A stretch of 64,000 bases of DNA, from the NCBI GenBank assembly GCA_964466575.1, contig CAYXNP010000003.1:21543-85542 (forward strand), written 5' to 3'. The DNA is from Candidatus Woesearchaeota archaeon. Its GTDB lineage: Archaea > Nanobdellota > Nanobdellia > Pacearchaeales > GW2011-AR1. Position 1 is the stretch's first letter. Every line of letters starts with the position of its first letter. Positions 8,361-52,209 of this stretch are shown one piece after another. The notes under the pieces are model-generated. The model had not been told where the DNA came from, made no database searches, and was given only the letters and a program-made list of their open reading frames with translations. Both the position numbers and the translations under genes were made by a program.

Positions 8361-8477
8361 AGCCCCATAGTTTAGTGGTCAAGAATACGGCCCTTTGAAA
8401 GTAAGATGAGGATATTTTTAATTTCTCATTAGGAAAGAAGAAAGGCTGTGACCCCGGTTCGAATCCGGGTGGGGCTA
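8361..8477 (+). tRNA. tRNA-Gln (anticodon TTG) with a 44-nt intron (8399-8442) at the canonical 37/38 position
   Basis: Acceptor AGCCCCA/TGGGGCT, T-arm CCCGG-TTCGAAT-CCGGG. The anticodon stem CGGCC/GGCTG is split by the intron. Confidence 0.8.
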
Positions 8478-12516: not shown

Positions 12517-12622
12517 ACCTGAATTTTTGTATGTTTTGAAGTAAACTTCAAAAGCATCGAAATTTGCTGAATCAAAGATTCAGTTATTATGGGAAGGAAA
12601 GAGAGAGTTATTAAAGTTTTGG

Positions 12623-12872
12623 TGTGAATCAGTATCTCCAAACAGAGAAAAAATAGTTCTATAAATTAATCCTCCAAAGAATACCAATAGAATAAAATTC
12701 ACTCCTCTACTCGCGCCCACGTTTTGTTATTAATATTAAAAATTGTCAAAACATAAACGCTCGCTTAACGCTCGTCGAATTTATATTAATTATTAACAAA
12801 AATCTGCGAATGTAATGAGCAGCAAATTTCTTCCCTTGGAATGACAAAGACTCATCGGAGATACTCGTGAAT
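12623..12872. repeat. repeat block containing family B copy (12710-12763), with short inverted termini AGTATCTCC/GGAGATACT
   Basis: The B core is nearly identical to 4921-4974. 9-bp inverted termini sit at 12631-12639 and 12857-12865. Confidence 0.5.
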
Positions 12873-18066: not shown

Positions 18067-18420
18067 TGTATAGGTTCATGACTATGTCCTCTTTATGTGT
18101 AAATTTTCTTGCTTCGCAAAGATTAATGGCTTCTACTCGCGCCTTGACTTTGCTATTGATAATTCAAATTGTCAAAGTCAAAACAACTCGGTCAGACTTC
18201 GTCACTGCTCTCGCGACCCCACTCAAACAAAGTTTTGAGGCGCCACTCGTGAAATCGCTCGTCTCCGCTAAGAAATTGTTAATCTATAATTCGGGATATA
18301 TTGTTATCATTTTTCTCGACGGAAAAATCTGGTGAAGCCGATTTTGAAGTCACAATAAATTTTCGAACGAAGTGGGAACTAATTTTTGGTTTAGCCCATG
18401 ACATATGTCATGAACCTACA
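18067..18420. mobile_element. composite MITE-like element with imperfect ~20-bp TIRs; contains family B-like (18136-18190) and family A (18210-18261) modules
   Basis: Left end is TGTATAGGTTCATGACTATGTCC; the reverse complement of the right end is TGTAGGTTCATGACATATGTCA. A related copy lies in inverted orientation at 61981-62456. Confidence 0.7.
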
Positions 18421-21716: not shown

Positions 21717-22121
21717 ATGGTATTTGAAATAATTTTAATCTTAGCATTTATTGGGTATTTGCTTTCAGCTTATGCGTTTTATATTGAAAAGAGAAAGGAG
21801 AAAGAAGAACGTTATAAAGCAGTTTGTGATATTGGTGAACATGCTTCTTGTACAAAGGCGTTTACGAGCGCGTATGGAAAAATGTTTGGAATTTCAAATT
21901 CGATTTATGGAATGTTGTTTTATGTTTTGGTTTTTATTTTGGCTTTGTTGAATTTTGGAAATTATATTTTTTATTTGAGTGTTTTAAGTTTTCTTGAAAC
22001 CTTGTATCTTGCATATATTCTTTATTTTAAATTAAAGAATTTTTGTTTGATTTGCCATGGAATTTATTTAATAAATATCTTATTGCTTGTTTTTAGTTGG
22101 AAATTTGCTTTTTGGATTTAA
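21717..22121 (+). CDS. VKOR-family membrane thiol oxidoreductase (putative, second copy)
   Basis: CDIGEHASCTKAFTSAYGKMFGIS loop cysteines and a CLIC motif in a TM helix. Confidence 0.6.
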   Translation: MVFEIILILAFIGYLLSAYAFYIEKRKEKEERYKAVCDIGEHASCTKAFTSAYGKMFGISNSIYGMLFYVLVFILALLNFGNYIFYLSVLSFLETLYLAYILYFKLKNFCLICHGIYLINILLLVFSWKFAFWI

Positions 22122-22960: not shown

Positions 22961-23040
22961 GTCGGGGGCGAGTGATTTCACGAGTGTCGTCTCAAAACTT
23001 TGTTTGAGTGGGGTCGCGAGGTTAAATCCCTCTGCAGGCT
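22961..23040 (+). pseudogene. duplicated 3' fragment of tRNA-Thr, interrupted in the T-loop by a 52-bp family A element (22969-23020)
   Basis: GTCGGGGG + insert + GTTAAATCCCTCTGCAGGCT repeats the 3' end of the intact gene, which lies 74 bp upstream. Confidence 0.8.
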
Positions 23041-24275: not shown

Positions 24276-24494
24276 TTATTCAAATAATTCTTCTGGCGTA
24301 AGATCTGCAGATTTGATTATTTGATTTAATGTGCCTTTTTTGAGAAGATTGTGGTTTGGAACCGTAATTTTTATTATTTTTTCTTGAGTATTTTTTTCTA
24401 ACCGAATATGAGAACCTTTTTGCCTTACAACAACAAAACCAAATTTAGCAAGTTTTTTTATTAATTCTCTTCCAGAAATTTGAGGTAATTTCAT
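24276..24494 (-). CDS. hicA: HicA-family toxin
   Basis: ISGRELIKKLAKFGFVVVRQKGSHIRLEK motif; overlaps hicB by 4 nt. Confidence 0.85.
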   Translation of the reverse strand: MKLPQISGRELIKKLAKFGFVVVRQKGSHIRLEKNTQEKIIKITVPNHNLLKKGTLNQIIKSADLTPEELFE

Positions 24495-24697
24495 ATTATT
24501 ATCTTTTTTAATTCAGCATTTTCTCTATAGATAATTAACTCATTTTCGTCTGCTTCTAAATAAAGTTCCATTGCTTCTTTTATATTTTTCAATGCTTCTT
24601 CTTTTGTTTCGCCTTGCGAAATACATCCAGGTAGAGAGGGAACATAAACTGTAAATCCTCCTTCAGTTTGAGGTTCTAAAACAATTGTTATTTCCAT
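24491..24697 (-). CDS. hicB: HicB-family antitoxin (UPF0150)
   Basis: EGGFTVYVPSLPGCISQGETKEEALKNIKEAMELYLE motif. Confidence 0.85.
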   Translation of the reverse strand: MEITIVLEPQTEGGFTVYVPSLPGCISQGETKEEALKNIKEAMELYLEADENELIIYRENAELKKIII

Positions 24698-24889
24698 GAT
24701 ATAATAATAATGCCTTCCTTTATAAGATTAGTGGTAGATTTTTTTAAAACCATTCTTCTCTTTCTTCTTTAATTCAATATCCTATTTTCTTTTCAATTAC
24801 TAACTTACTTACTAAGTAACTAACTTAATTAATAAGAAACATTTATATATTAAAAATTTCTATGTTATCTATTGAGGTTTTAAAATAAG

Positions 24890-25024
24890 GTGAAGAAATA
24901 TCTGCTTTTGATAGAGGATGAGAAATTGTGGGAGAAGTTTAAAGAGTTGAATAAGAAAGATATTAATTCTGAGATTATTGAGCTTATTAAAAAGAAAATA
25001 AATTTAGAGGAGAGAAAAAAATGA
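24890..25024 (+). CDS. small ribbon-helix-helix-like protein (44 aa, GTG start), first gene of the giant-protein operon
   Basis: Hand-translated VKKYLLLIEDEKLWEKFKELNKKDINSEIIELIKKKI.. (strand-helix-helix pattern). Its stop overlaps the ATG of the next gene (ATGA). Confidence 0.3.
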   Translation: MKKYLLLIEDEKLWEKFKELNKKDINSEIIELIKKKINLEERKK

Positions 25025-26901
25025 TTTCTGAGAATATTAAAAAAGGACAAGTTACAATTTTTATCATTGTTGCGATAATTCTTGTTTTTGCAGTTGTGAT
25101 TTTCTTTTTTTATAGAGAAAGCATTTTCAAAGATAAAGTTCCTGCGACAATAAGTCCTGTTTATAGCAGTTTTTTGGATTGTGTTGAAGAGGATACTTTG
25201 CTTGGAGTAGATATTCTTGGAACACAGGGAGGCTATATTTATGTTAATGAGTTAGAGTTTAGTCCTGGCAGTGCTTATATGCCTTTTTCTTCGCAGTTAG
25301 ATTTTTACGGCAACGCAGTTCCTTATTGGTATTATGTTTCTGGAAATAATATTCAGAAAGAAGAAATTCCTGCAAAATCAGATATGGAAAGAGAGCTGGA
25401 AAGATTTATTGAAGAGCAAATTGTTTTGTGTAATTTAAATTTGTATAAAGAGAACGGATACAAAATTGAGAATGGCGAGCCAAAAGTAGATGTGAAAATT
25501 AATAGCAAGAATATTGAAATTAATTTAGATATGGATTTGAATATTAGGAAGGGAGATGATAAGTATTCTGTTGCTTCGCATAAGAAAACTGTGAAGACAA
25601 ATTTTGGAAAGTTGTATGATATTGCGAGGGATGTTTATGATTATGAACAGGACACTTTGTTTTTGGAGAATTATGGAGTTGATACATTAAGGAATTATGC
25701 GCCTGTTGACGGTGTTGAGTTTTCATGCAAGCCAGAGACGTGGATTGCGTTGAATGTTTCTGAAACTTTGAAAGACGCGATTGAGGCGAACACACAGGCA
25801 TTGCGGGTTAAAGGCAAGTATTATGATTTGTCTAAAGATGGAAATAAATATTTTGTTGTTGACGTTGGCGATGATTTGTCTAAGGATTACAGAGTTAATT
25901 TTATGAATTCAAGATATTGGCCTTATGCGTTTGATGTTTCGCCGACTCAAGGAGATATTTTAATTGCGAATCCTGTTGGGAATCAAGAAGGTTTGGGAAT
26001 TTTGGGTTTTTGTTATGTGCCTTATCATTTTGTTTATGATTTGAAATATCCTGTTTTAGTTCAAGTAATGGATGAATCTGCCGACGAAGTTTTTCAATTC
26101 CCTGTTGCAGTTGTGATTCAAGGCAATAAACCAAGAGAACCTTTAGAAGGAAATGCAGCTGATTTAGGAGATGTTGAGCTTTGCCAGTATGCTAATCAAG
26201 AAGTTGAAGTCAGAACTTATAATACTAATTTAAATTCTGTTGACGCTGATATTTCTTTTAATTGTTTAGGAAGCAGGTGTAATATTGGTGAGACTTTTCA
26301 AGGAAGGCTGACAGAGTATTTTCCTCAATGTGTTAATGGATTTGTTATTGCAAAAGCTGAAGGTTATGAGACTGCGCAGTATTTGGTTTCAACTAATGTC
26401 GAGGATAGTGTGGATATTATTTTAGATAAATTGTATGAAGTTGATATTGATTTGTTAATTGACGGAAGGCCGACAAGCAAGGAAGCGATTATTTCATTTG
26501 CTGGAGATAATAAAGCCAAGACAATTATTTATCCTGAACAGAGAAGTGTTGAGTTGAGTCAGGGGTTGTATGATATTAAAGTTCAGGTTTTTGATGATTC
26601 TATTTTGACAATTGGAGCTACAACAACAAAACAGTGTTATGAAGTTCCTCGCGGTGCTGTTGGAGGATTTTTTGGAATTACAAAAGAAGAATGTGTTGAT
26701 ATTGAATATCCTGAACAAGTTGTTTCACAAGTTTTGATTGGCGGAGGAGAAGTTGAATATTTCATTTTAGAATCTGAATTAATTAACGCAAGAACAATTG
26801 AAATTGATACAGAGAGTTTGATTAAGCCAAATAGTATTGAGGCAATAAACACAAATTATAATTTATTTGAAAATAGAATTTTAGGGGTGAAGTTTAAATG
26901 A
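25021..26901 (+). CDS. secreted protein with an archaeal class III (type IV pilin-like) signal peptide
   Basis: N-terminus MISENIKKGQVTIFIIVAIILVFAVVIFFF has the KKGQ + hydrophobic-helix pattern. The rest has no recognised domain. ATGA overlap with the downstream giant gene. Confidence 0.6.
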   Translation: MISENIKKGQVTIFIIVAIILVFAVVIFFFYRESIFKDKVPATISPVYSSFLDCVEEDTLLGVDILGTQGGYIYVNELEFSPGSAYMPFSSQLDFYGNAVPYWYYVSGNNIQKEEIPAKSDMERELERFIEEQIVLCNLNLYKENGYKIENGEPKVDVKINSKNIEINLDMDLNIRKGDDKYSVASHKKTVKTNFGKLYDIARDVYDYEQDTLFLENYGVDTLRNYAPVDGVEFSCKPETWIALNVSETLKDAIEANTQALRVKGKYYDLSKDGNKYFVVDVGDDLSKDYRVNFMNSRYWPYAFDVSPTQGDILIANPVGNQEGLGILGFCYVPYHFVYDLKYPVLVQVMDESADEVFQFPVAVVIQGNKPREPLEGNAADLGDVELCQYANQEVEVRTYNTNLNSVDADISFNCLGSRCNIGETFQGRLTEYFPQCVNGFVIAKAEGYETAQYLVSTNVEDSVDIILDKLYEVDIDLLIDGRPTSKEAIISFAGDNKAKTIIYPEQRSVELSQGLYDIKVQVFDDSILTIGATTTKQCYEVPRGAVGGFFGITKEECVDIEYPEQVVSQVLIGGGEVEYFILESELINARTIEIDTESLIKPNSIEAINTNYNLFENRILGVKFK

Positions 26902-29900
26902 AATTTTCATTTGCGAAACTTACTAAGGTGCCCGAAACTCGCGACCCCACTCCTTCCCAAATATTTGAGACCCGCCCAAACGTGAAATCGCTTGCCCACC
27001 TATTTGAATCCCTAATACTAAGAAGTCCTGTTCATGATATTTCTAAGTGCCCACCCACCCCTAAATCTTCGTCCCACCCTAAATGGGTGGGTCCTGTTAG
27101 TGGAATTGCTAAGCCTATTAGTTTAACATTCATCTTGTTTTTCTTAATCGGAATTTTTATTTTGAATATAGCTTTAGTAAATTCGCAATATATTCCCCCA
27201 AGTTATCAAGCAGGTTATGGTTATGGAGGTGCGAATGATTATTGGAATTCTGCGAGTTATTCTCAAGCTCAAACTTATAGACCAGGATTAGGAACTAATT
27301 ATCCTTATTATAATTCAAATCAAAATTTGTATAGAGATCCTTATTATGGAGGAGATTATAGTTATAATAATCCTAATAGTAATTATCAATCTAGCAGTAT
27401 TTATTCTAATAGAAATCAATATTATAATTCATATTCAAACATGTATCCGACTTCATCGTATGGGAGAAATCCTTATTTATCGTCGGGATATGGGGGATAT
27501 TATCAGCCTTTTCCTTCGCAAACTTATTTACAAGGACAGGGAATTGATTTGTATAGGAATTTTGACGACGAGCAATGCGGTTTAGGACAGGATTTTTTAA
27601 TTCAGCAGGCGCCGTTTGGATGTTCGCCGAGCGTTGTTAGAAGTGATTTGTTAGAAGAACAAAATGTGCCTGTGTTTTGCCAGCTTGCTGCGACAAAATT
27701 AAATCCTTTGATTGATGTTGATGCGATTTATTCAATGGAATTTCGCCGCGATAAGAATTTTCCTGAAGATGTTGTTGGTGTTGGGTTTCATCCTGCAAGA
27801 GCTGCAGTAAGGCAAACATCTTATCTTGGCAGTTCATCTTCTTATGGAGCTAGTTTTTCCGGCAGAACAGGCAGTTTGCTTAATTCAGCTGTTATGAATA
27901 ATGTTGGCTATGCAGTTGTAGTTTTGAAACAGCAGCCAAATGAAAAAGATATGCCTGATTCGATTTCTGGAAATCTTACTGCTGTTTTAAGGTATGATGT
28001 TAAGAATGCATTTGGTGTTGGGAATGTTGAATTTGCATTGCCGCAAGTTGATGATTTATCATGGAATGAAGATTATAGGAAATATAGTTTTTGGAAAGGC
28101 AGGGGATTTTTGCGGGCCGATTTAGTTGAGCCTGACAGAGCAGTTATTTCAATAATGTCTGACCAGAATTTAAAAATTGATACTGTGAGTTTGACTGTTG
28201 GACAAACTGCTCGAGAAGTTAGAATGCCTGGATTTTATTGTTTTGCAAAAGCAGAAGTTAAGTTAGATAGAATTGGATTTCCTGATACGACTGCCCGATT
28301 AAGGATTGATAATGATTATGTTGATTTAGTCGCTGACCAAAGATTTTTAGATGATAGATGCAGGGTTCAGTTTGTTGAAAAGAATGGCTTGTCTGAATTT
28401 GCGCAGATAAGATGCAGTGAAGACGACGGTGCGACAAGATATTATGAATTTCAGAAAAGTCCGCGAGTTGTTTTAAAAATTAATGATGTGGAGGGAACTT
28501 ACAAAGTTGGAGAGCCATTGTCTTTGTTTGGAACTTCGTATTATGTTGTCAGGGCAATTGAGCAAAACGATGAAAATGGAAAGATTTCAATTGTTTTAGA
28601 TTCTTCTTTGACGCCTTATAATTATAGAAGCTATCCAAGTTTGACGTCGAGTTCGAGTTCGTATTTGTATAATAATAATTTGAGAATTGATTTAGGAGAA
28701 ACATTGGATTTGTCTGATGATAATAAAATTCAATTTTTAAGTTTGTCAGAAGGTGTAAATGAAGACTTTTCTCAAGAAAATGATGTGGATGTTGGTAATT
28801 ATAATTCTGTGTTTAAAGAGAATTATGATAATGCTATTGCTGATTATTCCAGAGTTGCAAGTGATTTTGCGAATGAGCTTATGGAACCAGGTTTTGGCGA
28901 AGCAGGGAAAACTTATGGAGAAGAAGCATTGGAGAGAGCTGCTTACTTGGCAGAGGCGACAGGACAGATATTAACAAGCAAAGAGTTTATTGATAAAATG
29001 AAAGACGAGTATGGTGAATTAGAAAATGAAAATGAGCTTCGGCTTTTGGCAGACGAGTCTTTGTTTTATTCAGAGGAAGAAACAAGCGGTGTTATGATTG
29101 ACGGAAGGTTGCATATTATTACTTTTTTAGGAGCAAGCAAACCGAGGTTAAGTGATTTTAGCGCAAAGTTTTTTGTAAAAAATACTCAAACAAATAAAGT
29201 TGATGATTTTGTTTTAGGAAAAGATGGCAGGCGAGAATTTGATAGAGGAAATAATCGGGATCAAATTATTCTTAGATATTTAGATGAATTTTCTGCTGAT
29301 ATAGATTATATCGGAGAAGAATATATTGATGCTAATTTGAGCAGAAGAAATATTTCAAGAAGGTTTACTGTTTTTAGAGACAGGCCGATTACTATTGGTA
29401 ATGGGAAATACACCCTTTCTGTTGAGAATATTAATTTTAAGAATGTTGCTTATGTAAGAATTGAGCCAAAGTTGGAAGATATTAGGACAGAGGCGAATTT
29501 TAGCATTAATATTGGAATTGAAAAACGGGCGATTAAATTGAGTCCTGAACAAACTGAAAATAGGATTAATAAAGCGAATGAGACGCTTGAAAAGTTGAAT
29601 AAGATTTCTGATGGACTTGGAAAAGTTGTGAAAGGAACAAAGGCAGCGTGTCTTGCTACTGGCGGGTTTTTGATTACAAAGAATTTCCTGCAGAATTTGG
29701 GAGGCAAGCAAATCGCAAGACAGCAAATTATGAGAAGCCAGGGAGGCTGGCAAGAGTTTTGCAGACAGGCAATTGCAGATAATGATGGAAATTATGCAAG
29801 CATGGATGATTGTTTTAATAAAAATGCAGATGCAATTGACGCCGACGTTGAAACACTTAATGGATTTATACAAAAGCAAAACGATGAGATAAAAGCTGCA

Positions 29901-32816
29901 AAAGGAACCCAAGGAGCAAGTATTTTTGGAAATGATTATTATGATAATGATGAATATGTAAAAAATTATCTTCCTGGTGTAAAGAGTGATATAGAAGCTT
30001 ATGGAAAAGATATTGTTGATCCAAATAATCCTGATAGGAAAATTACTTCTGAACGGTTGGCAAGCATATTAGAACAGAAATATGAAAAAGAGGGAGGTTA
30101 TAGTATTGAACAAGCAAGAGATGTCCAATTGTATGCGCGGATTTTGAATTCAGAGGAAGTTTCTGCTGATTCAAGATTATATAAAATGACTCAAAAGAAT
30201 TTATATGATACTGCTGCCTTGATGGATGAGACAACTCAAGGATTAATTGATGCTGATACATTGCAAAATGATTTTGCAAGCAAGGGATTTCCTAATATTA
30301 ATATTCATTCTTATGGCAAAAAGAATTCTGTTACTGGAATTTATAGCGGAGGAACTGTTTTGGGAAGTAATATTAAAGGAGTTGAATTAACTGAAGAAGA
30401 AAAGAAAAAGAGTTTTGCATTTGAGCCATTTTATTATGGGAATGAAAAATATGTTGCGCTTTTAGATGGTTCTGGAGGAAATAGATATAATATTAAAAAT
30501 GTTTACAAATTAGGTGATGTTGGTGCTGGGAATGTGATTAATGTTGCCAGCGCTTCCGACGAGGCTACGCTTAAACAACAGTTTAGAGGATTTGAGAAAT
30601 TTGACGTGAATTCTTATAATAATGTTTACAAAAGTCCTGAAGCAAGATTTTATGAAGCTGAGCCTTACAAAGGATTTCCAGCTGTTGTTCCATTTGATAC
30701 GACAAAAGGATGGTATGCTGCAACTAAGCAGACAATTGCTGCGTTTGGAAGTTTAGGTGCGTTTGATGATTCAGGAAGGATTTCTAGTTTCTGGCTTTGT
30801 AATGTTGGCAGTAATGGGCTGGAAGAATTTAATACTGGTTTTGGCGACGATAATTGTCAGCAGATTAATATTGGAACTAACCAGCCTTATGGAGAAATTT
30901 TAGGATTACCGGTTGGTGAGGCGTCAAGACTTGTTGGAAGAGCAATTAGGGCATTGGAATCTGCTTCGAGTCAAAGGCAGGGCAATGTAAATATAAAATA
31001 TATTTCAATTGAAGGACAGAGAATAAAAGTCGGCAATCCTGCTGCGAATATTCCGCAGATGCAATGCCAGGATTTTATGTCGCCTAAGGATTGTCATTTG
31101 TTGTTTAATGTCTGCGACCCTGTGATTTGTCCGTCGTCAAGGTGCAACCTTGGAGGAAATTATAATGTGCCGAATGTTATTCAATCTGGAATAATTGGAA
31201 GCATCGCATTGTGTTTGCCAAATTATAAGGAGGGAATTGCTGTTCCTGTTTGTTTGAGTGGTGTGAATGCTGGTGTGCAAAGTCTTCAAAGTATTTATCA
31301 AAATTATCATGATTGTCTGAGAGAAAGTTTAGATACTGGAAGACAGACTGGAATTTGCGACGAGATTCATAGTATTTATTTGTGCGATTTCTTCTGGCAG
31401 CAGGCGACGCCGATTGCGAAGATTGGAATTCCAAAATTAATTGGAAGTTTGCTTGGAGAAGGAACCAGAGGAGGAGGAGAATATCTTGGAGTTCAGAGCG
31501 CTTGGGAAGGAGCTTCTAATTCAATGGATTATTTTACAAAGAGTTATGCAGAAAATTCTTACAATGCATTTAAAGTTAGAAGCACTGATGAAGTTGGAAC
31601 TCAAGTTTGCAAGAATTTTGCTTCATTAAGATTTCCTGATGTGATTGATAATTTGATTGAGCCTGATTCGCCGCCGCAATATAACGCGTGGTTTGATGAA
31701 ATTCCTTTGACAACAGCGACGGTTCCTGCAACTTCGCAGTATAAAGTGTTTTATCATATTTTTGGCGGAAAAGATTTTGGAAGTTATTATACTGTTTATT
31801 TGAAATCTGCTTCCGGAACTTCATTTTTTGAAACTCCTGGAAGATTAGTTGTTGCTTCAGGATATATTGACAGAGGTGGTTATGCGTCAGATACTTTGGA
31901 TTTTACTCAGTCTGCGGGATATAGTGAGTTGTGTGTTAGTGTTAATGCGCAGGAAGAGTGCGGGTTCCAGAAAGTTTCGACTTCGTTTGCTTTGGATTAT
32001 TTGAGCAACAAATATCTTAATGAGCAGGCGTCAGCGACGGGAATTATGTCTGAGAGTGAATGTGTTTCTGGAAGTTCTAGTTTGTACTCGTTGGCTCAGC
32101 CGAATTTACAACAAGGTGTTGATGAAGTTATTAATCCTCAACTTTATAATTATGGAATTGTGAGAGTGTGTTCAACTGATAACCCTGGAAATAGAAATGA
32201 TCCAAAGACCGGGACTGATGCTTCAAGATGGCGTGTTGTTGGAAACTGCGACGGAAGTGTTGGAAAAGTTCAGTGTTGGGTTGATACTCGAAGTGTTAAA
32301 GAAAATATTGATATTAAATATTTAGAAAAAGGCGCATTAGATAGTATTGATGCGAATTATATGGATTTCTTAAACGGAACTGAAGGTTTTATGGATCAAG
32401 GAGAAGTTCAATCTCAAATAGAATCAATAGATAAAGGAACACTTAGTGATAATGAAAAGATAAATACTATTACTGATATTTTGGATAAGGTTGTGTTTAG
32501 TCATCAGAAAGCTTATTTGCTGTTGTTAAGAGGAGATGCTTATAAGAATCTTGCAATTCAAGCATATACTGGTATTAAGAGTAAATTAAGAGAGAAAGAT
32601 TCTGTTGTGCCTGTTGAAAATCCAAGGCCAGAAGATAAACCTAATTCTTTGCCTGTTGTTGAAGTGCCTGTAAGTGAGACAGATAAAAAAGATTCGAGTG
32701 AGCAACAAAAGATTGATGAAGAAAATGCGAGAAAGGCAGAAGAGGCAAGGATAAGGGCAGATGAAAAAGAAAGATTGTTGAGAGAAATTAATCAAGGTGT
32801 TGGCGCAGTTGCTTGA
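26898..32816 (+). CDS. giant (1972 aa) membrane-anchored extracellular protein
   Basis: Uninterrupted ORF with a TM helix at aa 74-96, a Tyr/Asn/Ser/Gly low-complexity region at aa 97-215, a Cys-rich region around aa 1380-1560, and a K/E-rich coiled-coil tail. An alternative GTG start at 27087 would exclude the repeat-derived N-terminus. Confidence 0.75.
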   Translation: MKFSFAKLTKVPETRDPTPSQIFETRPNVKSLAHLFESLILRSPVHDISKCPPTPKSSSHPKWVGPVSGIAKPISLTFILFFLIGIFILNIALVNSQYIPPSYQAGYGYGGANDYWNSASYSQAQTYRPGLGTNYPYYNSNQNLYRDPYYGGDYSYNNPNSNYQSSSIYSNRNQYYNSYSNMYPTSSYGRNPYLSSGYGGYYQPFPSQTYLQGQGIDLYRNFDDEQCGLGQDFLIQQAPFGCSPSVVRSDLLEEQNVPVFCQLAATKLNPLIDVDAIYSMEFRRDKNFPEDVVGVGFHPARAAVRQTSYLGSSSSYGASFSGRTGSLLNSAVMNNVGYAVVVLKQQPNEKDMPDSISGNLTAVLRYDVKNAFGVGNVEFALPQVDDLSWNEDYRKYSFWKGRGFLRADLVEPDRAVISIMSDQNLKIDTVSLTVGQTAREVRMPGFYCFAKAEVKLDRIGFPDTTARLRIDNDYVDLVADQRFLDDRCRVQFVEKNGLSEFAQIRCSEDDGATRYYEFQKSPRVVLKINDVEGTYKVGEPLSLFGTSYYVVRAIEQNDENGKISIVLDSSLTPYNYRSYPSLTSSSSSYLYNNNLRIDLGETLDLSDDNKIQFLSLSEGVNEDFSQENDVDVGNYNSVFKENYDNAIADYSRVASDFANELMEPGFGEAGKTYGEEALERAAYLAEATGQILTSKEFIDKMKDEYGELENENELRLLADESLFYSEEETSGVMIDGRLHIITFLGASKPRLSDFSAKFFVKNTQTNKVDDFVLGKDGRREFDRGNNRDQIILRYLDEFSADIDYIGEEYIDANLSRRNISRRFTVFRDRPITIGNGKYTLSVENINFKNVAYVRIEPKLEDIRTEANFSINIGIEKRAIKLSPEQTENRINKANETLEKLNKISDGLGKVVKGTKAACLATGGFLITKNFLQNLGGKQIARQQIMRSQGGWQEFCRQAIADNDGNYASMDDCFNKNADAIDADVETLNGFIQKQNDEIKAAKGTQGASIFGNDYYDNDEYVKNYLPGVKSDIEAYGKDIVDPNNPDRKITSERLASILEQKYEKEGGYSIEQARDVQLYARILNSEEVSADSRLYKMTQKNLYDTAALMDETTQGLIDADTLQNDFASKGFPNINIHSYGKKNSVTGIYSGGTVLGSNIKGVELTEEEKKKSFAFEPFYYGNEKYVALLDGSGGNRYNIKNVYKLGDVGAGNVINVASASDEATLKQQFRGFEKFDVNSYNNVYKSPEARFYEAEPYKGFPAVVPFDTTKGWYAATKQTIAAFGSLGAFDDSGRISSFWLCNVGSNGLEEFNTGFGDDNCQQINIGTNQPYGEILGLPVGEASRLVGRAIRALESASSQRQGNVNIKYISIEGQRIKVGNPAANIPQMQCQDFMSPKDCHLLFNVCDPVICPSSRCNLGGNYNVPNVIQSGIIGSIALCLPNYKEGIAVPVCLSGVNAGVQSLQSIYQNYHDCLRESLDTGRQTGICDEIHSIYLCDFFWQQATPIAKIGIPKLIGSLLGEGTRGGGEYLGVQSAWEGASNSMDYFTKSYAENSYNAFKVRSTDEVGTQVCKNFASLRFPDVIDNLIEPDSPPQYNAWFDEIPLTTATVPATSQYKVFYHIFGGKDFGSYYTVYLKSASGTSFFETPGRLVVASGYIDRGGYASDTLDFTQSAGYSELCVSVNAQEECGFQKVSTSFALDYLSNKYLNEQASATGIMSESECVSGSSSLYSLAQPNLQQGVDEVINPQLYNYGIVRVCSTDNPGNRNDPKTGTDASRWRVVGNCDGSVGKVQCWVDTRSVKENIDIKYLEKGALDSIDANYMDFLNGTEGFMDQGEVQSQIESIDKGTLSDNEKINTITDILDKVVFSHQKAYLLLLRGDAYKNLAIQAYTGIKSKLREKDSVVPVENPRPEDKPNSLPVVEVPVSETDKKDSSEQQKIDEENARKAEEARIRADEKERLLREINQGVGAVA
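26925..27091 (+). repeat. family A-long element (26925-27017) plus C-tract core (27042-27091) at the 5' end of the giant ORF
   Basis: The 93-nt block differs at 6 positions (manual alignment) from 48542-48634 inside GlyRS, and is read in the same frame. Confidence 0.8.
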
Positions 32817-32837: not shown

Positions 32838-33062
32838 CGCTCCAAAGTCGCTCGCGTTATTTATTGCAGCTCGCGACCTCACTCGAACAAAGTTTTGAGG
32901 CAACACTCGTGAAATCGCTCATCAAAACCGACTTTGTCAAGTTCTTCGCTTAAAGAAATTATGAACCCAAAAATTCTGAAATATTTTGTTATCAGGTTTT
33001 CTCGATGAATAATCGTGTCAAAAGGTCGATTATAAGTTAATAATTCTCGCGACTTTGGAGCG
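32838..33062. mobile_element. MITE-like element with 14-bp TIRs CGCTCCAAAGTCGC/GCGACTTTGGAGCG, carrying a nested family A core (32870-32921)
   Basis: TIRs at 32838-32851 and 33049-33062. Internal modules are shared with 54960-55260 and 18190-18290. Confidence 0.7.
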
Positions 33063-33171: not shown

Positions 33172-33314
33172 GCGGGAATGCCGGATGTCGCTTATATACT
33201 TAAGCTCGTCCATCACCCCAAATATTGAAGCGGGAATGCCGGAGAACTCGCGACCTCACTCGAACAAAGTTTTGAGGCGAGACTCGTGAAATCGCTCGGG
33301 TCAAACGGGCGAAG
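33172..33314 (+). pseudogene. two partial 5' copies of tRNA-Leu, the second split in the D-loop by a family A element (33247-33298)
   Basis: GCGGGAATGCCGGA occurs at 33172. GCGGGAATGCCGGAG + insert + GGTCAAACGGGCGAAG occurs at 33230-33314. Both are compared with the intact gene at 33337. Confidence 0.8.
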
Positions 33315-33479: not shown

Positions 33480-33685
33480 ATTTCGTGTTAAGGGCGTAAG
33501 TGGAAAGAGGTGGCGAGTGATTTCGCGAAAGTAAAAATTCAAATATTTATGGGTGTGGCAGTGAGCGGGGTCGCGAGTAGAGATTGCGAGCATCCTAGTT
33601 CCCGCATTACTATTGAACGAAGTGAAATAGTATGTGAATTATAATTCTTAATAGAGGAGTGGGTTAGGGTTTCCTAGTTCTCGCA
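33480..33685. repeat. repeat block with reverse-oriented family A copies and two partial 3' copies of tRNA-Leu (33594-33606, 33673-33685)
   Basis: CGAGTGATTTCGCG..GGGGTCGCGAG at 33514-33577. ATCCTAGTTCCCGCAT and TCCTAGTTCTCGCAT repeat the tRNA 3' end. Confidence 0.7.
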
Positions 33686-34174: not shown

Positions 34175-35110
34175 TTATTTTTCTTTTCTCTTATTTTTAT
34201 TTTCAATTTCTTTGATTTTCAATTTGTCTTCTAATTGAAGTTTGTCAATTAGTTCTTTGTAACGATTTCTAATTGTTACTTCTGTGATTCCTGCAATGTC
34301 TGCTACTTCACGCTGCGTCTTTTTTTCGTCATTCATTAGCGCAGCGACGTAAAGTGCGGCTGCTGCGATTCCTGCAGGGCCTCTTCCACTTGTTAGTTCA
34401 ACATCTTCTGCTCTTTTTAAAACTTTGAGAGCATCGTTTTGAGTTTTAGGAGAAAGTTTTAGAACTGAACTGAAACGCGAGATGTAATCTTTTGGAGAAG
34501 ATTGTTTTACAGTTATTCCAAGTTTTCTTATTATGAATCTGTAAGTTCTTCCGATTTCTTTTCTTTCGACGTCGGAAGCAGTTGCCATTTCGTCTAATGT
34601 TCTTGGAATATTATAACTTCGACAAGCCGCATATAAACACGCTGCGATAACTGATTCCATACTTCTGCCACGAACTAGCCCTCTTTGAAGAACGTAATTG
34701 TAAATTCTTGAAGCTTCATCACGAACAACATTTGGAAGATTTAGATAAGAGGCGATTACTCTTAATTCTGCCATTGCTAGTCTTAGATTTCTTTCAATAG
34801 ATGTAGAAACTCTTTCCTGCCATTTTTTTAATCTTAGAAATTTACGGGTTTGGCCAGGTTCTAATTTGTATATATCTGAAATTTCTCCAACATTTGTTAT
34901 AAGTCCTTTGTCAAATTTTTGGATTGACATTGGTGCTCCACCACGGCCTTTTTTTTCTGATTTGTCGAATTTTCCTTGGGGGTCTTGACCTGTGTCCACC
35001 ATTTTTTCTTCCACGACTAGACCACAATCATTACATATTACTTCACCATGATGTTCGTCATAAGTAAGATGTATACTTCCACATTCAGGACATTTTCGTA
35101 TAAAAGCCAT
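34175..35110 (-). CDS. tfb: transcription initiation factor IIB (TFB)
   Basis: N-terminal zinc ribbon CPECGS..VICNDCGLVV, two cyclin-fold repeats, and ..ITEVTIRNRYKEL. Confidence 0.95.
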   Translation of the reverse strand: MAFIRKCPECGSIHLTYDEHHGEVICNDCGLVVEEKMVDTGQDPQGKFDKSEKKGRGGAPMSIQKFDKGLITNVGEISDIYKLEPGQTRKFLRLKKWQERVSTSIERNLRLAMAELRVIASYLNLPNVVRDEASRIYNYVLQRGLVRGRSMESVIAACLYAACRSYNIPRTLDEMATASDVERKEIGRTYRFIIRKLGITVKQSSPKDYISRFSSVLKLSPKTQNDALKVLKRAEDVELTSGRGPAGIAAAALYVAALMNDEKKTQREVADIAGITEVTIRNRYKELIDKLQLEDKLKIKEIENKNKRKEK

Positions 35111-39682: not shown

Positions 39683-39823
39683 AGCGGAGACCGGGACTCG
39701 AACCCGGGAAAATCTGCTAACTGCAATCAGCCTTGAGCCTATTTCTAGGGAGAGACTGTGAAGGAGAACCGTTAGGTTCTTCTCATCTGCAGGCAGACGC
39801 AGTAGCCGCTGTGCCATCTCCGC
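39683..39823 (-). tRNA. tRNA-Cys (anticodon GCA) with a 68-nt intron (39719-39786) at 37/38
   Basis: Acceptor GCGGAGA/TCTCCGC, T-arm CCGGG-TTCGAGT-CCCGG. The anticodon stem TCTGC/GCAGA is separated by the intron. Confidence 0.75.
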
Positions 39824-39841: not shown

Positions 39842-39959
39842 TGGCCCGGACAGGATTTGAACCTGCGACCCCCTGCTCTCTCCAGCTTTCTCTCCGAGGT
39901 CTCTTTTCTAAAGAGAGCTCTAGAAGGCAGGTGCTCTATCCAGGCTGAGCTACCGGACC
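39842..39959 (-). tRNA. tRNA-Arg (anticodon TCT) with a 43-nt intron (39878-39920) at 37/38
   Basis: Acceptor GGTCCGG/CCGGGCC, D-arm GCTC..GAGC, T-arm GCAGG-TTCAAAT-CCTGT. The anticodon stem CCTGC/GCAGG is split by the intron. Confidence 0.8.
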
Positions 39960-41235: not shown

Positions 41236-42003
41236 TTATTTCGCTTTCTTCTTATATCGCCTTTCAATTGCGAGTAGAATCATTGCGCCCAAAACTGCGA
41301 GGACAAAAACGTAAACAAAAAGATTATTTTTTAATGGGGAAAAATTAGATTCTTCATCTGGACGCAATCCGCCAGTAATTCCGGATTGTCGAGAAGTGCT
41401 TTCATCTAAAATTCCTATAACATTCCCTGTCAAAGCTACATTGCTTCGAGATATTTCTGTATCACCATTTCTTATTATTTTTATATCGTAATTGCCGTCA
41501 GGAGCGATTAGTCTGAATGTTAAACTTTTGCCGACGTTTAAATCAATATTTTTGTCGCTTGCTGTGTTGCCAATAATTATTTTTATGTCTTCAACAAATC
41601 TGGTGTTTCCTGTGTTTGTTATTATTAGTTTGTCGCCGTTAAGTTCAAAAGTTGCTGTTTCGCTTTCTTCAATAATGAACTGGGCGGTTGCTTTTGCTTC
41701 TTGGTATGTTGCTGTTATTGTCCAATCCCCTGGAGGAATATTATCGCCTAAGTCAATATCGATAAATTGATTTGAAGCAATTGTTTTCTCGATTTTCTCG
41801 ATTTTTTTTGCGTCTTCAAAAACTAAATTAACTTGGTTATTGAGTGGTTTGTTTTCAGAATCAAACAATGAAACCTTAACATTTATTTTTTCTCCTGGTT
41901 CATATTTTTCCAGAGATGTTTCAATTGAGATTTTTTCTCCTTGAGCTAAGACTAATGGTAATACTAAGATGAATAATAATGCGATTGTTAAGCTCTTTTT
42001 CAT
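41236..42003 (-). CDS. secreted protein with Sec signal and C-terminal TM anchor
   Basis: MKKSLTIALLFILVLPLVLAQG signal and a C-terminal hydrophobic helix followed by RRYKKKAK. Confidence 0.6.
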   Translation of the reverse strand: MKKSLTIALLFILVLPLVLAQGEKISIETSLEKYEPGEKINVKVSLFDSENKPLNNQVNLVFEDAKKIEKIEKTIASNQFIDIDLGDNIPPGDWTITATYQEAKATAQFIIEESETATFELNGDKLIITNTGNTRFVEDIKIIIGNTASDKNIDLNVGKSLTFRLIAPDGNYDIKIIRNGDTEISRSNVALTGNVIGILDESTSRQSGITGGLRPDEESNFSPLKNNLFVYVFVLAVLGAMILLAIERRYKKKAK

Positions 42004-42181: not shown

Positions 42182-42257
42182 GAGTCTCTTTTGTTTATTT
42201 TTTATAATTAATTTTATATACTCTTATTTTATTAGTTGAATATTGAAAGGAGGTAAA

Positions 42258-43523
42258 ATGAAAGAATATTTTATTTTATTTTATTTTATTTTTTTGGTAT
42301 TTATTTTAAGTATTTCTTTTATATTCGCTGAAGAAGGAATTGTAGCAAATGATAATTTTGAATCTGGAAACTGGAATGGTGGAGGGGGAGTTATTGGTTG
42401 GAACAGTGGATGGTATCACGCAGGCGATTCTGCAATAAGAAGTGACGGGAATTCTTATGAAGGAAATTATCATTTGCGATTAAGAAAAAATAATGGATAT
42501 GTTGATAGAAGCGCTGATTTATCAAGTATTCAAAATGCAACTTTGTCTTTTTATGCTAAGGTGAATAGCTTTGAAGGAAGCGACTTTGCAGTTTTCTTAG
42601 TGAGTAACAACGGAGTCAATTGGAATACTTTAAAAACATTTACTTTAAGTGATTCAGATAACTCTTACCATTTATATTCTTATGATTTAACCCAATATGG
42701 ATTATCAAGTAATTTCTGGATTGCCGTTGATTCTGAAATGTCTAATACAGGAGATTATCTTTTTATTGATGATATTAGAATAATTTCCGGTAATATTCAA
42801 GAACCACCTACACTAAATATAACTCAATTAACTTGGCATATTCAATATAATCCAACTCCAACTAATCCCTCTGCTGATGTTGATGTCTGGAATTTAGATT
42901 TATTTGATAATAGCAATACAACAATTCAAAATCTAAAAAATCAAGGAGTTTTTGTTATGTGTTATTTTTCTGCTGGTAGCTGGGAAGATTGGCGGGAAGA
43001 TGCTTCATTATTTCCTGAATCATGCAAAGGAAATAGCAATGGCTGGCCAGGAGAAAAATGGATAGACACTAATTGTCCTGAAGTCAGAGAAATTATGAAA
43101 TCAAGAATTGATTTAGGAATAAGCAAAGGGTGTGATGGATTTGACCCAGATAATATGGATGCATATGGAAATAACGGAGGAGGATTTAATTTAACACAAC
43201 AAGATGCAATTAATTACTATCTTTTTTTATCAAATTACACACATAGTCAAGGAAAAAATATTGGATTGAAAAATGCTTTATTAATTATTCCTAATGTTTT
43301 AAATAAAATGGACTGGGCAGTAAATGAACAATGTTTTAGATATAACGAGTGTAATCTTCTTCAGCCAGTTATCAATCAAGGAAAACCTGTTTTTAATGTT
43401 GAATATGGAGGATTATCCAAAGCAAATAAAATTTGTTCTAAAGTAAATGAACTTGGATTTTCTTCACTAATCAAAAAGACATCTTTGGATAGCTTTGAAA
43501 TCGCATGTTCAAGTTACATTTAA
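42258..43523 (+). CDS. secreted GH114-like glycoside hydrolase (endo-alpha-1,4-polygalactosaminidase family) with an N-terminal jelly-roll/CBM-like domain
   Basis: Signal peptide; VWNLDLFD, VMCYFSAGSWEDWR, GCDGFDPDNMDAY, IGLKNA and VFNVEY are collinear with GH114. The start is moved to ATG 42258. Confidence 0.7.
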   Translation: MKEYFILFYFIFLVFILSISFIFAEEGIVANDNFESGNWNGGGGVIGWNSGWYHAGDSAIRSDGNSYEGNYHLRLRKNNGYVDRSADLSSIQNATLSFYAKVNSFEGSDFAVFLVSNNGVNWNTLKTFTLSDSDNSYHLYSYDLTQYGLSSNFWIAVDSEMSNTGDYLFIDDIRIISGNIQEPPTLNITQLTWHIQYNPTPTNPSADVDVWNLDLFDNSNTTIQNLKNQGVFVMCYFSAGSWEDWREDASLFPESCKGNSNGWPGEKWIDTNCPEVREIMKSRIDLGISKGCDGFDPDNMDAYGNNGGGFNLTQQDAINYYLFLSNYTHSQGKNIGLKNALLIIPNVLNKMDWAVNEQCFRYNECNLLQPVINQGKPVFNVEYGGLSKANKICSKVNELGFSSLIKKTSLDSFEIACSSYI

Positions 43524-43575: not shown

Positions 43576-46500
43576 ATGAAAAAGAGAGAAGTAGTTTTTA
43601 TATCAGTTATAATTCTATTTATTAGTTTATTAAGTGCTTCAACATTTGAAGATAAATCTCAAAGCAATTTTGATAATGGTTCATATTCTAAAACTTTCTA
43701 CAATTTTTCTATTGGAGCAATACAATTAAATAACTCTCAAGGATTTTTATCTGGAAATTTCACAAGCAGAATTTTTGACGCTGGAAGCGTGGCTTCATGG
43801 AATTTGATTTTTTGGATTCGGGGTGGAAAATATAGATATGAACTTCCAAATAATAATCAAATAGAAGATTCTTTTGGCGGTGCAGATATGAACGGAAATG
43901 TTCTTTTATTTCACCTTAATGAATCAGGCGGGACAATATTTGATTATTCTGGAAAAGGAAATAATGGGACTATAACAGGGGTTATAACTTATAATGCTGC
44001 AGGAAAATTTGGAAAAGGAGTTGATGCAGGAGGGTCTACTGGAAGAATTGCTATTCCAACAACAGGAATTCCTAGCATGGCTTTTAACGATTCAATAACA
44101 ATTGAGTCATGGATAAAATGGGATGGAGAATCAGGAGAAAACTTTAATTTGCAGAATGTTGTAACTGCAGGAAGTTATAGAAAAGCACTTAGAATAACAG
44201 AGCCAGACCATTGGAACGGCGGAAGCCAATTACTTTCTTATTTTACTATTGGAGGAATTGATATTGACCTTTATTCAAGCACAAAAATATCTACAATTAA
44301 TTGGACTCATATAACTACTACCTATAATGGAACTGCATTATCTATTTATATAAATGGAAAATTAGAGACTTTTAACTCAACAATCTCTGGACAAATTGTT
44401 TCTAATGACGATAGCGTTTATATAGGAGCTGAATCTGGGTCAGTTAGTAATTTTGACGGAATCATAGACGAGGTTGCAATTTATAACAGGTCTTTGTCTG
44501 CAGAGGAAATACTAAAAAGATATGAACGAGGGGTTTTACAGCTAAATTTAAGTGTAAGAAGTTGCGATGATGCAGATTGTGTTGGAGAAAGTTTTACAAT
44601 ATTAAATGATACTTCTCCTCAATCACTTAATTTGTCTAATAATACTTATTTTCAATATTTTGTTAGTTTTTCTTCTGAGAATGAAAGCACAAGCCCACAA
44701 TTTTTTAATTTAACTATTGACTATACAATATCAAATGTCGCTCCGTCAGTAACTATATTATCTCCCCCTAATGGAACATTTTTTAATTTTAATACTTCTA
44801 TTCCTTTAAATTTTACTGCGAGCGATTCAGATAATAATTTACATTCTTGCTGGTATACTTTAAACAGTGGAGCAAATAATTTCACTATAAGTAGTTGCAA
44901 TAATTTTACATTTAATTCAAGTGCTGGATTAAAAACAATTTATGTTTATGCAAATGATACTTCTGGAGAGATTTCTAATGACAGCATTAGTTTTACAATA
45001 GACATAACTTATCCTGAAATAAATATTTTATATCCTCAAAATACAAATTATTCTTTAAATGTTGATTCACTGAATTACTCAGTTAGCGACTCATATTTAC
45101 AATCATGCTGGTATTCATTAGATAGCGGAGAAACAAACATAACAACAAATTGTGGAAGCAATATTACTGGATTGTCAAGCAATCAAGGAATTAATATTTG
45201 GAAAGTTTATTCAAATGATTCTGCTGGCAATATAAATTCAAGTAGTGTTACTTTTTTTATTGACTCAATTATTCCATTAATCTCTTATGGTACTGGAACA
45301 GAAGAAAATGGAACAACATTTTCAAGAAGTTATATTTATGTTAATATAAGTGTCACAGAAATAAATGAAGCAAATGTTACTTTTAATTTATATAATTCAA
45401 CTTCTTTAATTAATTCTACTACATTCATTTCATCTCAAAGAACAATTAACTGGACAAATTTAGCAAATGGAATTTATAAATATAATGTTACTATTTATGA
45501 TATTGTTGGTAATAAAAACTCTACAGAAACAAGATTCATAACTTTAGATACAATACCTCCAAATTTAAGCTTAGTAAGTCCTTCACAAGGAAATTATTCT
45601 AATGCAACTCTATTAGTTAATATTTCATCTGATAGTTCTTCAATATGGTTTTTTAATGGAAGCGAAAATATTACTTATTCTTCTTCTGCATATTATGTTT
45701 TTTCTCAAGGTTTTACAATATTAATTGCTTATTCAAATGACTCTGCCGGCAATATAAATTCTACAAATATTTCATTTAATATTGATAGTTTAGCGCCTTC
45801 TTTAGTTATTACAAAACCAATTGATGGTTCAACATTTGGAACAAATTTAAGTTTATCTTTGAATTTTAGTGTCTTCGACAATAACTTACAAAGTTGTTGG
45901 TATAATCTTGATAATGGAATAAATGCAACATTACAGAATTGTCAAAACACTATATTTAATATCTCAAGTGGCTTCCATGTTGTTTATCTTTTTGCTAATG
46001 ATAGTTTTGGAAATCTTGCAACTAATAATAGCTCTTTCAATATTCAAATAGGTGCTCCTTCTATTTCATTAATTTCGCCGGTAGGAGATTATCTTAATAT
46101 CACTCAAAACATAGAACTTATTTATACTGCAAGTGATTCAGATTTAGATAGTTGTGAACTTTGGGGGGATTTCAATGGCACTTTTGAGTTAAATCAAATT
46201 AATTCAAATGTGGTTTCTGGTATTGATAATTATTTTTTCTTAAATATAACAGATGGAATTTATCTTTGGAATATAAAATGTAATGATTCTTTTGGAAATA
46301 ATGCCTTTGCAGAAAATGAAACTTTTTATATTGACACAATAAATCCTTTGTTAACTTTAAGTCAGCCAACAGGAAGTTATTCTTCAAGAAATAATATTCC
46401 AATAGTGTTTAATGCAAGTGATGCAAGTCCTTTGATTTGTTATTACAAAGTTTACAGAGGAATTAATTTAGAAATCCAAACAACTTCAGTTAGTTGTTTG

Positions 46501-48298: not shown

Positions 48299-48370
48299 AA
48301 AAAGTTCTTTAATTGTGACTATATAAAGTTTGTTGCAGAATATTTAAATAATCTTGTAGTGAGTAATTAT

Positions 48371-52189: not shown

Positions 52190-52209
52190 CTCTTACTTTT
52201 CTTAATTTT

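Follow-up and report, generated by a model that had tools for sequence, protein, structure and literature searches.

Can three overlapping genes of an archaeon, the last of them encoding a protein of 1972 amino acids, be read as an apparatus for contact with other cells? The genes lie in a 64,000-nucleotide stretch of contig CAYXNP010000003.1 from a Candidatus Woesearchaeota archaeon (hereafter the window). A first interpretation, made without database searches (hereafter the sequence-only reading), took them for a translationally coupled operon and proposed an undescribed host-attachment or cell-cell interaction apparatus, possibly assembled by the type IV pilus machinery. Re-reading of the window sequence places the three plus-strand open reading frames (ORFs) where that interpretation had put them, with the lengths it gave:

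24890-25024, plus strand: ORF1, 44 amino acids, GTG start
25021-26901, plus strand: ORF2, 626 amino acids
26898-32816, plus strand: ORF3, 1972 amino acids

The ATGA overlaps claimed for both junctions (25021-25024 and 26898-26901) are likewise present, and Shine-Dalgarno-like sequences, GAGGAG for ORF2 and GGGGTGA for ORF3, stand 8-14 nt 5' of the respective ATGs. The three-gene coupled operon is genuine and widespread in Pacearchaeota/Woesearchaeota (Nanoarchaeota). As to its role, we give about even chances to the proposal that the locus is a lineage-wide envelope module, in which ORF1 would regulate a surface complex for cell contact consisting of ORF3 anchored by ORF2, and which in this organism would serve as an adhesin or a structural spike. 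What stands of the earlier proposal is thus a coupled, conserved operon with products predicted to be extracytoplasmic; the word 'undescribed' fails for ORF3, as the family and its proposed role have already been published. The window protein is a new, hydrolase-less member of that family, which is experimentally uncharacterised.

The sequence-only reading found no family that it could name, and for ORF3 this has to be corrected: judged by homology, the protein belongs to the Pacearchaeota/Woesearchaeota 'large murein transglycosylase protein' family of PMC8204110 and PMC9723730, though it lacks the SLT domain. Passages of the former (Castelle 2021) describe a large lytic murein transglycosylase family, fam00969, specific to Pacearchaeota/Woesearchaeota, and suggest for it an extracellular location and binding to bacterial cell walls; in passages of the latter (Vigneron 2022) the family is read as evidence of predation. 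Earlier accounts of the large murein transglycosylases are those of Rinke 2013 and Castelle 2015 (AR20). With the fam00969 proteins ORF3 shares homology over the full length of a core of ~1,680 amino acids, restriction to the same lineage, an N-terminal signal and a position downstream of an ORF2 partner; it differs in having neither an SLT domain nor another hydrolase. Its parts are as follows:

27117..27185, plus strand: hydrophobic region and likely signal-peptidase site (..ALVNS↓QY), with the only strongly hydrophobic segment at amino acids 76-94
27186..27539, plus strand: Tyr/Ser/Asn/Gly-rich low-complexity spacer, amino acids 97-214 (23% Y, 15% S, 13% N)
27540..32567, plus strand: conserved core, amino acids 215-1890, ~1,680 amino acids with 28 Cys, nearly all invariant in relatives
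31065-31397, plus strand: Cys-dense helical block, amino acids 1390-1500
amino acids ~1594-1690: FnIII/ApaG-like beta-sandwich, single copy
32568..32816, plus strand: charged C-terminal tail and stop, 82 amino acids (16% E, 11% K, 8.5% R)

Our searches returned 787 ORF3 homologues, the best 120 of which share 37-66% identity with it across 53-94% of the query, and an alignment of 40 homologues contains many invariant columns. With the bounds of core and tail fixed by conserved segments at the two ends of the core, the core measures 1,575-1,870 amino acids in 119 of the 120 (usually ~1,650-1,700), and the tail anything from 27 to 1,596. It is in the tail that the enzymes reside. A hidden Markov model (HMM) built from the tail SLT segments of relatives finds the domain in 53 of the 120 homologues and not in the other 67; its position is nearly always in the tail, the one exception (P0073) carrying it mid-protein. 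Other tails contain Amidase_3, Peptidase_M10, VanY or DUF1615, often alongside SLT and all within the tails, and some homologues are recorded as having ankyrin repeats and a TPM domain. These hydrolase modules sit where the window ORF3 has its short charged tail. The window protein itself has no SLT domain (PF01464/GH23) and no Pfam match at E <= 1, and the HMM gives no match in its four closest relatives. The possibility that an SLT domain is hidden elsewhere in the window was rejected, the HMM finding none in any six-frame ORF.

The passages of PMC8204110 and PMC9723730 that deal with the family characterise it by the SLT domain only and do not mention the conserved core. Nor did we find in the passages of the literature at hand the anatomy of a constant core with a variable tail, the obligatory ORF2 partner with its prepilin-like N-terminus, the pairing of ORF1 with an operator, or the fixed position in the core genome.

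Composition bears out the Tyr-rich spacer, the Cys-dense block and the charged tail that the sequence-only reading had described in ORF3. The long spacer occurs in few relatives only, including the two closest (P0002 and P0003); in most relatives the core starts at amino acid ~45. The segment that had been called a transmembrane anchor looks instead like a cleavable Sec signal with an AXA-like site, VNS↓Q here and VSA↓Y in the consensus, and in relatives a short K-rich start runs straight into the hydrophobic segment as in an ordinary signal peptide, e.g. MKNKRKEKKITNTLILLAVALTFIILNINIINS↓QY. Twelve of the 28 core Cys fall within amino acids 1390-1496. An AlphaFold2 (AF2) model of amino acids 855-1895, with a predicted local distance difference test (pLDDT) score of 70.6, features long helices together with a domain rich in beta structure, a Cys-knotted block of helices and the FnIII/ApaG-like sandwich; Foldseek with this model returned nothing below E = 1e-3 in the PDB and nothing meaningful in the viral BFVD. 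Likewise, searches of ORF3 against Pfam, NCBIfam, PHROG and PDB sequences came back without a match. Sensitive profile and structure-prediction searches of the large proteins therefore leave the core with no detectable relative in Pfam, PDB sequences or Foldseek, and no profile match places the proteins in known S-layer or protease families.

The ORF2-ORF3 pair is a fixed core-genome module. Four loci of relatives, fetched via ORF3, have the order S3Ae/L44e ... (ORF1) - ORF2 - ORF3, followed by TFB, S8e and LSM, with ORF1 present in three of the four and missing from L004. A scan of GTDB species representatives identified 313 genomes with an ORF2 relative, and 79 of the 80 loci fetched from these carry the label Nanoarchaeota, Pacearchaeota, Woesearchaeota or unclassified archaeon, as do nearly all named ORF3 homologues; the remaining locus, from a metagenome-assembled genome (MAG) labelled Bacillota, is probably a mis-binned contig. 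An ORF3 homologue comes directly after ORF2 in all related loci with sufficient downstream DNA, and a divergent ORF2 subfamily of 640-700 amino acids has the same arrangement, its partner being a 2,137-amino-acid SLT-bearing protein. The 4-nt overlap of the ORF2 stop with the ORF3 ATG recurs in 59 of 85 related loci, and the 3' end of ORF1 lies 4, 8 or 11 nt within ORF2 in most of the 40 loci that contain ORF1; in two loci (L026 and L061) ORF1 stops ~100 nt 5' of ORF2. The operon is kept, uninterrupted, in the related DPANN genomes checked for synteny, and because its ORFs are conserved and intact in relatives the sequence-only reading survives on this count.

A mobile-element or viral origin was rejected, the housekeeping neighbours (S3Ae/L44e upstream; TFB, S8e and LSM downstream) recurring in distant relatives. 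The downstream TFB gene (34175-35110, minus strand) is itself unusually slow-evolving, its product being ~88-96% identical between species whose ORF2/ORF3 share only ~40-55%. The window is archaeal in character, with ~32% GC, intron-bearing tRNAs, TFB, S3Ae, two SRP54-family GTPases, a GINS subunit and a tRNA-splicing endonuclease, and the nearest named relatives of ORF2 and ORF3 come from Candidatus Pacearchaeota and Nanoarchaeota MAGs.

ORF2, the proposed membrane-anchored partner, starts with MISENIKKGQVTIFIIVAIILV and is composed of the following regions:

amino acids 1-30: class III-like signal/anchor, followed by a disulfide-rich alpha/beta region
amino acids ~391-626: three C-terminal beta-sandwiches
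25039..25110, plus strand: K-K-G↓Q-V-T-I-F-I-I-V-A motif and hydrophobic helix, with a putative prepilin-type cleavage between G9 and Q10

It has 2,447 homologues with ~52-70% identity over the full length, and a profile search of 1.84 billion representatives gave 5,896 matches, 742 of them below 1e-30. Ten Cys are invariant in an alignment of 40 sequences. The AF2 model (pLDDT 73.5) consists of a transmembrane helix, an alpha/beta region and three beta-sandwich domains, for which Foldseek against the PDB offered only generic immunoglobulin, pilin CnaB and transthyretin-like matches with TM scores <= 0.14; the profile matched no PDB sequence and no pilin. Scans of ORF1, ORF2 and ORF3 with Pfam, NCBIfam and PHROGs gave nothing meaningful.

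The sequence-only reading saw in the ORF2 N-terminus an archaeal class III signal peptide. The KGQ-plus-hydrophobic pattern is real and conserved: the window motif KKG↓QVTIFIIVAIILVFAVVIFFF falls under the consensus K/R-[G/A/S]-Q-V-T-I-F-I-I-I-A, in which Q10, T12 and F14 are invariant among the 40 aligned sequences, and the same pattern is seen in 85 loci. As in class III signals, there is a charged n-region with K/R at -2 and G/A/S at -1, and a hydrophobic helix comes right after the putative cleavage site. The curated models for class III and pilin signals tell against the assignment, in that PF04021, PF07790 and the NCBIfam archaeal pilin/flagellin N-terminal models matched neither the full ORF2 nor the isolated 50-amino-acid N-terminus at E <= 10. 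At the level of the motif, then, the ORF2 N-terminus looks like a class III signal, and it appears conserved beyond the needs of a plain anchor. Compared with archaeal proteins bearing such signals (pilins, archaellins, bindosome sugar-binding proteins) and with bacterial modular pilins (S. sanguinis PilB), ORF2 has in common an N-terminus that is short and charged, with K/R at position -2, G/A/S at -1 and Q at +1, and a ~20-residue hydrophobic helix joined to a large globular module; it differs in lacking a match to any curated model, and its surroundings yielded neither filament machinery nor a peptidase. Only one other ORF in the 1.34 Mb of related loci has an N-terminus of this type, a short ORF2 paralogue. 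This paralogue of the ORF2 N-terminal part (271 amino acids; locus L085 of a Pacearchaeota MAG, 11971-12786, plus strand) has the same KRGQVTIFIIIAV start and a similar first domain, and lies shortly downstream of ORF3 with one minus-strand ORF between.

ORF2 and ORF3 are thus both predicted to be extracytoplasmic and are rich in conserved Cys. Approximately 3 kb upstream of the operon, a VKOR-family (vitamin K epoxide reductase, DsbB-like) membrane protein is encoded at 21717-22121 on the plus strand (Pfam E = 5e-29). Because of this homologue the organism should be able to make extracytoplasmic disulfides, and VKOR is the likely source of those in the Cys-rich ORF2 and ORF3; the gene is not syntenic with the operon in relatives.

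How the operon is controlled can be approached through two elements upstream of ORF1:

24809..24819, plus strand: palindrome TTACTAAGTAA (TTACT-N-AGTAA), candidate operator, ~30 bp 5' of the TATA box
24834..24850, plus strand: BRE/TATA-like promoter AAGAAAC-ATTTATATAT, upstream of ORF1

The second of these we take, from general knowledge of archaeal promoters, to be a B recognition element with a TATA box (BRE/TATA); its AAGAAACATTTATATA sequence is near-invariant at a constant distance 5' of ORF1 in ~40 related loci. The 11-bp palindrome TTACTNAGTAA has a single exact copy in the window. It is found in 29 of 40 loci containing ORF1 against none of 38 loci lacking it (Fisher p = 1.2e-12), with one copy per locus, 70-90 nt 5' of ORF1, and the TTACT-N-AGTAA half-site repeats are common to ~40 species, ~30 bp beyond the BRE/TATA. 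ORF1 is a K/E-rich cytoplasmic protein, MKKYLLLIEDEKLWEKFKE..DINSEIIELIKKK, with 2,477 homologous clusters; the best 120 homologues are 43-62 amino acids long (nearly all 43-48) and 65-88% identical, and have neither a Pfam match nor an informative name. Since ORF1 and the palindrome co-occur upstream of the operon promoter, ORF1 is probably a DNA-binding autoregulator of the operon, whatever its fold.

The sequence-only reading had called ORF1 like a ribbon-helix-helix (RHH) protein. The strand-helix-helix order is indeed predicted, but no profile supports membership of the RHH superfamily. In common with RHH regulators (the Arc, Mnt, CopG, MetJ superfamily) ORF1 has the size (~45 amino acids), the predicted order of elements, the first place in an operon that it presumably regulates and strict co-occurrence with a palindromic site, and its second helix opens with 'N-S/T-E-I' as in Arc and Mnt. 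It differs in that no profile matched it significantly (with approximate reference sequences for Arc, Mnt and CopG, hhalign gave a probability of 1.7%), and its N-terminal strand YLLLIE is more hydrophobic than is typical of the DNA-reading strands of RHH proteins.

Loci that lack ORF1 (L004, L008, L009, L019, L035-L037 and others) have a separate AATAAACTTTATATA promoter/TATA ~45 nt before ORF2, and ~150 nt upstream of ORF2 a gene for a small membrane protein of ~70 amino acids ending in ..GG.L.I.GG.N..R... Because the ORF1-less loci have their own promoter architecture, the module exists in two regulatory versions. In the window a HicA toxin/HicB antitoxin pair (24276-24494 and 24491-24697, both on the minus strand) lies directly upstream of the operon and divergent to it, and is absent from this position in the loci of relatives examined.

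One peculiarity of the window bears on where ORF3 starts, namely a dispersed GC-rich repeat:

26928..27015, plus strand: repeat copy in the ORF3 signal n-region, codons 11-40, the GC-rich stretch reaching to ~27100
repeat core copies (minus strand where marked): 3703-3717, 18210-18224, 23006-23020(-), 26938-26952, 32870-32884, 33247-33261
further core copies: 33563-33577(-), 48555-48569, 54975-54989, 61216-61230, 62028-62042

The core motif CTCGCGACCYCACTC occurs in 11 copies in the window against 0.02 expected, and the full repeat spans ~60-90 nt with the pattern CTCGCGACCCCACTC..AAAGTTTTGAG..ACTCGTGAAATCGCTCG. Most copies are intergenic or just 3' of genes. The copy at 26928-27015 is 95% identical to 48545-48632, and these two longest copies, in ORF3 and in the ORF at 48359-50158, are translated in the same frame (VPETRDPTPSQIFETRPNVKSLAH). 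There is no exact copy of the core in 88 related loci (1.34 Mb), although repeat-related sequences at the 5' end of ORF2 in L069 and L081 give N-terminal extensions there; the repeat has no Rfam match, and the nested hairpin predicted for it is without covariation. It is absent from the ORF3 N-termini of relatives, and because relatives lack it the long N-terminal extension of ORF3 can be regarded as an in-frame insertion specific to this lineage. As the ATGA junction is ancestral and the Shine-Dalgarno sequence good, ATG 26898 is probably still the start of ORF3 and the repeat an in-frame insertion into the signal n-region. GTG 27087 was considered as a start and judged less likely, there being no Shine-Dalgarno-like sequence before it, whereas GGGGTGA precedes 26898.

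How might these parts act together? We propose that the operon is expressed from the single BRE/TATA promoter as one transcript and that, because of this one promoter and the coupled translation, the products of ORF1 to ORF3 would be made together. ORF1, as a small cytoplasmic DNA-binder, would recognise TTACT-N-AGTAA just 5' of the promoter and so autoregulate the operon, as its co-occurrence with the site suggests. ORF2 would be inserted into the membrane by its K/R-G-Q motif and hydrophobic helix, leaving a disulfide-bonded head and three beta-sandwiches outside the cell. ORF3 would be exported by Sec and relieved of its signal peptide, its disulfide-rich core of ~1,680 amino acids being retained at the surface by ORF2; the two would then form an anchor-plus-giant-subunit complex with the ORF3 C-terminus distal from the cell as an exchangeable 'business end'. 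The tail enzymes of about half of the relatives would cleave bacterial peptidoglycan, and since these tails carry such enzymes the complex may touch bacterial walls there. In the window, the tail is predicted to be a short charged helix, and because it carries no enzyme an adhesive or structural role is suggested for the source genome, the complex acting as an adhesin or spike with no wall-degrading activity of its own. A cell-surface role in contact with other cells seems to us the most reasonable reading, favoured by the fact that the ORF3 family often ends in peptidoglycan hydrolases. Pacearchaeota and Woesearchaeota are tiny, probably host-attached archaea, and the literature reports Pacearchaeota as enriched in the host-attached size fraction.

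Several points weigh against this proposal. The link to bacterial walls is borrowed from relatives, because the window copy has no hydrolase, and the 'adhesin or spike' is argued purely from architecture, since the core has no recognisable fold. ORF1 gave no significant match to a DNA-binding or RHH family in profile searches against Pfam, NCBIfam and the PDB, and it is missing from about half of the loci, so that it must be dispensable for the module. The abnormal 75 amino acids that the repeat places before the hydrophobic region might impair the export of ORF3. Finally, we found no experimental or proteomic data on ORF1, ORF2 or ORF3.

Other explanations of the same pair deserve consideration. 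ORF2 and ORF3 might be the two subunits of an S-layer, with ORF2 as a SlaB-like anchor, ORF3 as a SlaA-like outer subunit and the hydrolase tails as decorations. Across the lineage the pair occurs almost everywhere, apparently as a single copy, and keeps its place beside housekeeping genes; it combines a large secreted protein with a smaller membrane-anchored partner bearing beta-sandwich domains, and no further obvious candidate for an S-layer gene came to light in the window. The likeness to SlaA/SlaB of Sulfolobales, a co-transcribed large outer protein with a smaller beta-sandwich membrane anchor, is nevertheless an analogy in function only. SlaB is anchored via its C-terminus, and ORF2, anchored N-terminally, has the opposite polarity. 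Numerous invariant Cys together with long helical regions are atypical and, to our knowledge, unlike the S-layer proteins that have been described. Furthermore, N-glycosylation sequons are depleted (one in ORF2 against 3.9 expected, six in the ORF3 core against 14.3), and neither PDB sequences nor Foldseek provide a match to solved S-layer proteins, both of which count mildly against an S-layer. We consider this explanation unlikely. Similarly improbable is the idea that ORF2 belongs with the modular type IV pilin-like proteins, is cleaved by a PibD/EppA-type prepilin peptidase and sits at the tip or base of a filament, of which ORF3 would be the giant PilY1-like tip adhesin. The K/R-[G/A/S]-Q sequence, the invariant Q at +1, T at +3 and F at +5 and the ~20-amino-acid hydrophobic helix fit archaeal class III cleavage sites, such sequence conservation would be unusual for a plain membrane anchor, and a predicted helix (amino acids 45-68) with a four-stranded antiparallel sheet (amino acids 148-192) may be compatible with a pilin-type head. 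Class III signals are, moreover, known on non-filament proteins outside pilus loci. All of the case for a pilus tip nonetheless comes from the N-terminal motif of ORF2. Against it stand the failure of the curated pilin and flagellin models described above, the lack of any pilin in the PDB profile search or among the top Foldseek matches, the single further ORF with such an N-terminus in 1.34 Mb, itself an ORF2 paralogue, and the outcome of a search for peptidase A24, secretion ATPase and platform genes, none of which turned up when the window ORFs were scanned or in the gene tables, with Pfam assignments, of seven related loci. Type IV pilus components are reported as missing in DPANN genomes by He et al., although other papers contradict this by describing type IV filament systems or archaellin expression in some DPANN. 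Assembly by the type IV pilus machinery, as the sequence-only reading had suggested, finds no support in these searches.

It is tempting to speculate that ORF3 is a delivery or penetration device, in which the Cys-knotted block and Gly-rich helices (amino acids ~1425-1520) would form a conduit or pore through the host membrane once the wall has been breached, with ORF2 as its launch platform. Moderately hydrophobic, conserved helices (VIQSGIIGSIALCLP, GIAVPVCLSGVNAGVQSL and FFWQQATPIAKIGIPKLIGSLLG) do lie within the most conserved region and in relatives are associated with wall-degrading tails, and by analogy the polymorphic C-terminal architecture may recall toxin and effector delivery proteins. 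The hydrophobicity of these helices (Kyte-Doolittle 1.3-1.5) is, however, below the transmembrane range, model confidence is low (pLDDT <50 at model residues 646-729), no pore-former in the PDB or BFVD matches structurally, and the idea is purely speculative; we regard it as very unlikely. The surface complex for cell contact may also be put more boldly, as an uncharacterised machine of novel fold, specific to Pacearchaeota/Woesearchaeota, that would be their primary organ for attaching to or breaching bacterial hosts, with a constant core, an exchanged C-terminal 'warhead' and control by ORF1 and its operator. In this strong form we find it rather doubtful; if true, the machine would be the apparatus of archaeon-on-bacterium episymbiosis or predation.

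Comparison with better-known systems places the ORF3 architecture in context. Polymorphic toxins and phage tape-measure or tail proteins with terminal lysins likewise join a constant large body to a swappable C-terminal enzyme, often a peptidoglycan hydrolase; ORF3 differs in having no homology to them and in being a fixed chromosomal core gene next to TFB. The SPEARE giant proteins of Nanohaloarchaeota are, like ORF3, giant DPANN surface proteins proposed for host interaction. Hamm and colleagues are said to have described in 2019 SPEARE with protease, adhesion and restriction-endonuclease domains; by Pfam scan these are absent from ORF3, which is set apart from SPEARE by such descriptions.

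Elsewhere in the window, a second probable surface-protein cluster (41236-42003, minus strand; 42243-43523 and 43576-47505, plus strand) comprises an MG2-domain protein, a GH114 glycoside hydrolase and a 1309-amino-acid Laminin_G_3/Big-domain protein; in L002 a Laminin_G_3 giant is likewise found upstream of the operon. The leucyl-tRNA synthetase ORF (57961-61053, plus strand, 1030 amino acids) has a Ser_hydrolase/alpha-beta-hydrolase match at amino acids 282-440, between the catalytic and editing domains, which may be a domain insertion or fusion; in L004 the Ser_hydrolase is encoded as a separate 189-amino-acid gene. A LAGLIDADG_3-like ORF of 229 amino acids (52282-52971, minus strand) abuts tRNA-Met (52209-52282). 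Three tRNA genes were detected by Rfam and not by ARAGORN (8361-8477, plus strand; 39683-39823 and 39842-39959, minus strand) and are 117-141 nt long, presumably owing to introns; the window also encodes a tRNA-splicing endonuclease (56857-57411, minus strand).

Pacearchaeota and Woesearchaeota are abundant, uncultivated and metabolically minimal archaea. The giant family to which ORF3 belongs has been cited as the main genomic hint of a life on bacteria in some of them, by virtue of its SLT domain alone. Our findings indicate that the hydrolase is no more than an optional tail, attached to a constant core of 1,680 amino acids without a recognisable fold, that this core is always paired with a conserved membrane-anchored partner bearing a prepilin-like N-terminus, and that the pair is fixed in the core genome, with many genomes adding a tiny regulator and a recognisable operator. 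A vague annotation thereby becomes a defined three-part system with testable pieces. Indeed, if the module is an organ of host contact, the types of tail could serve to predict the cell-wall types of hosts from metagenomes.

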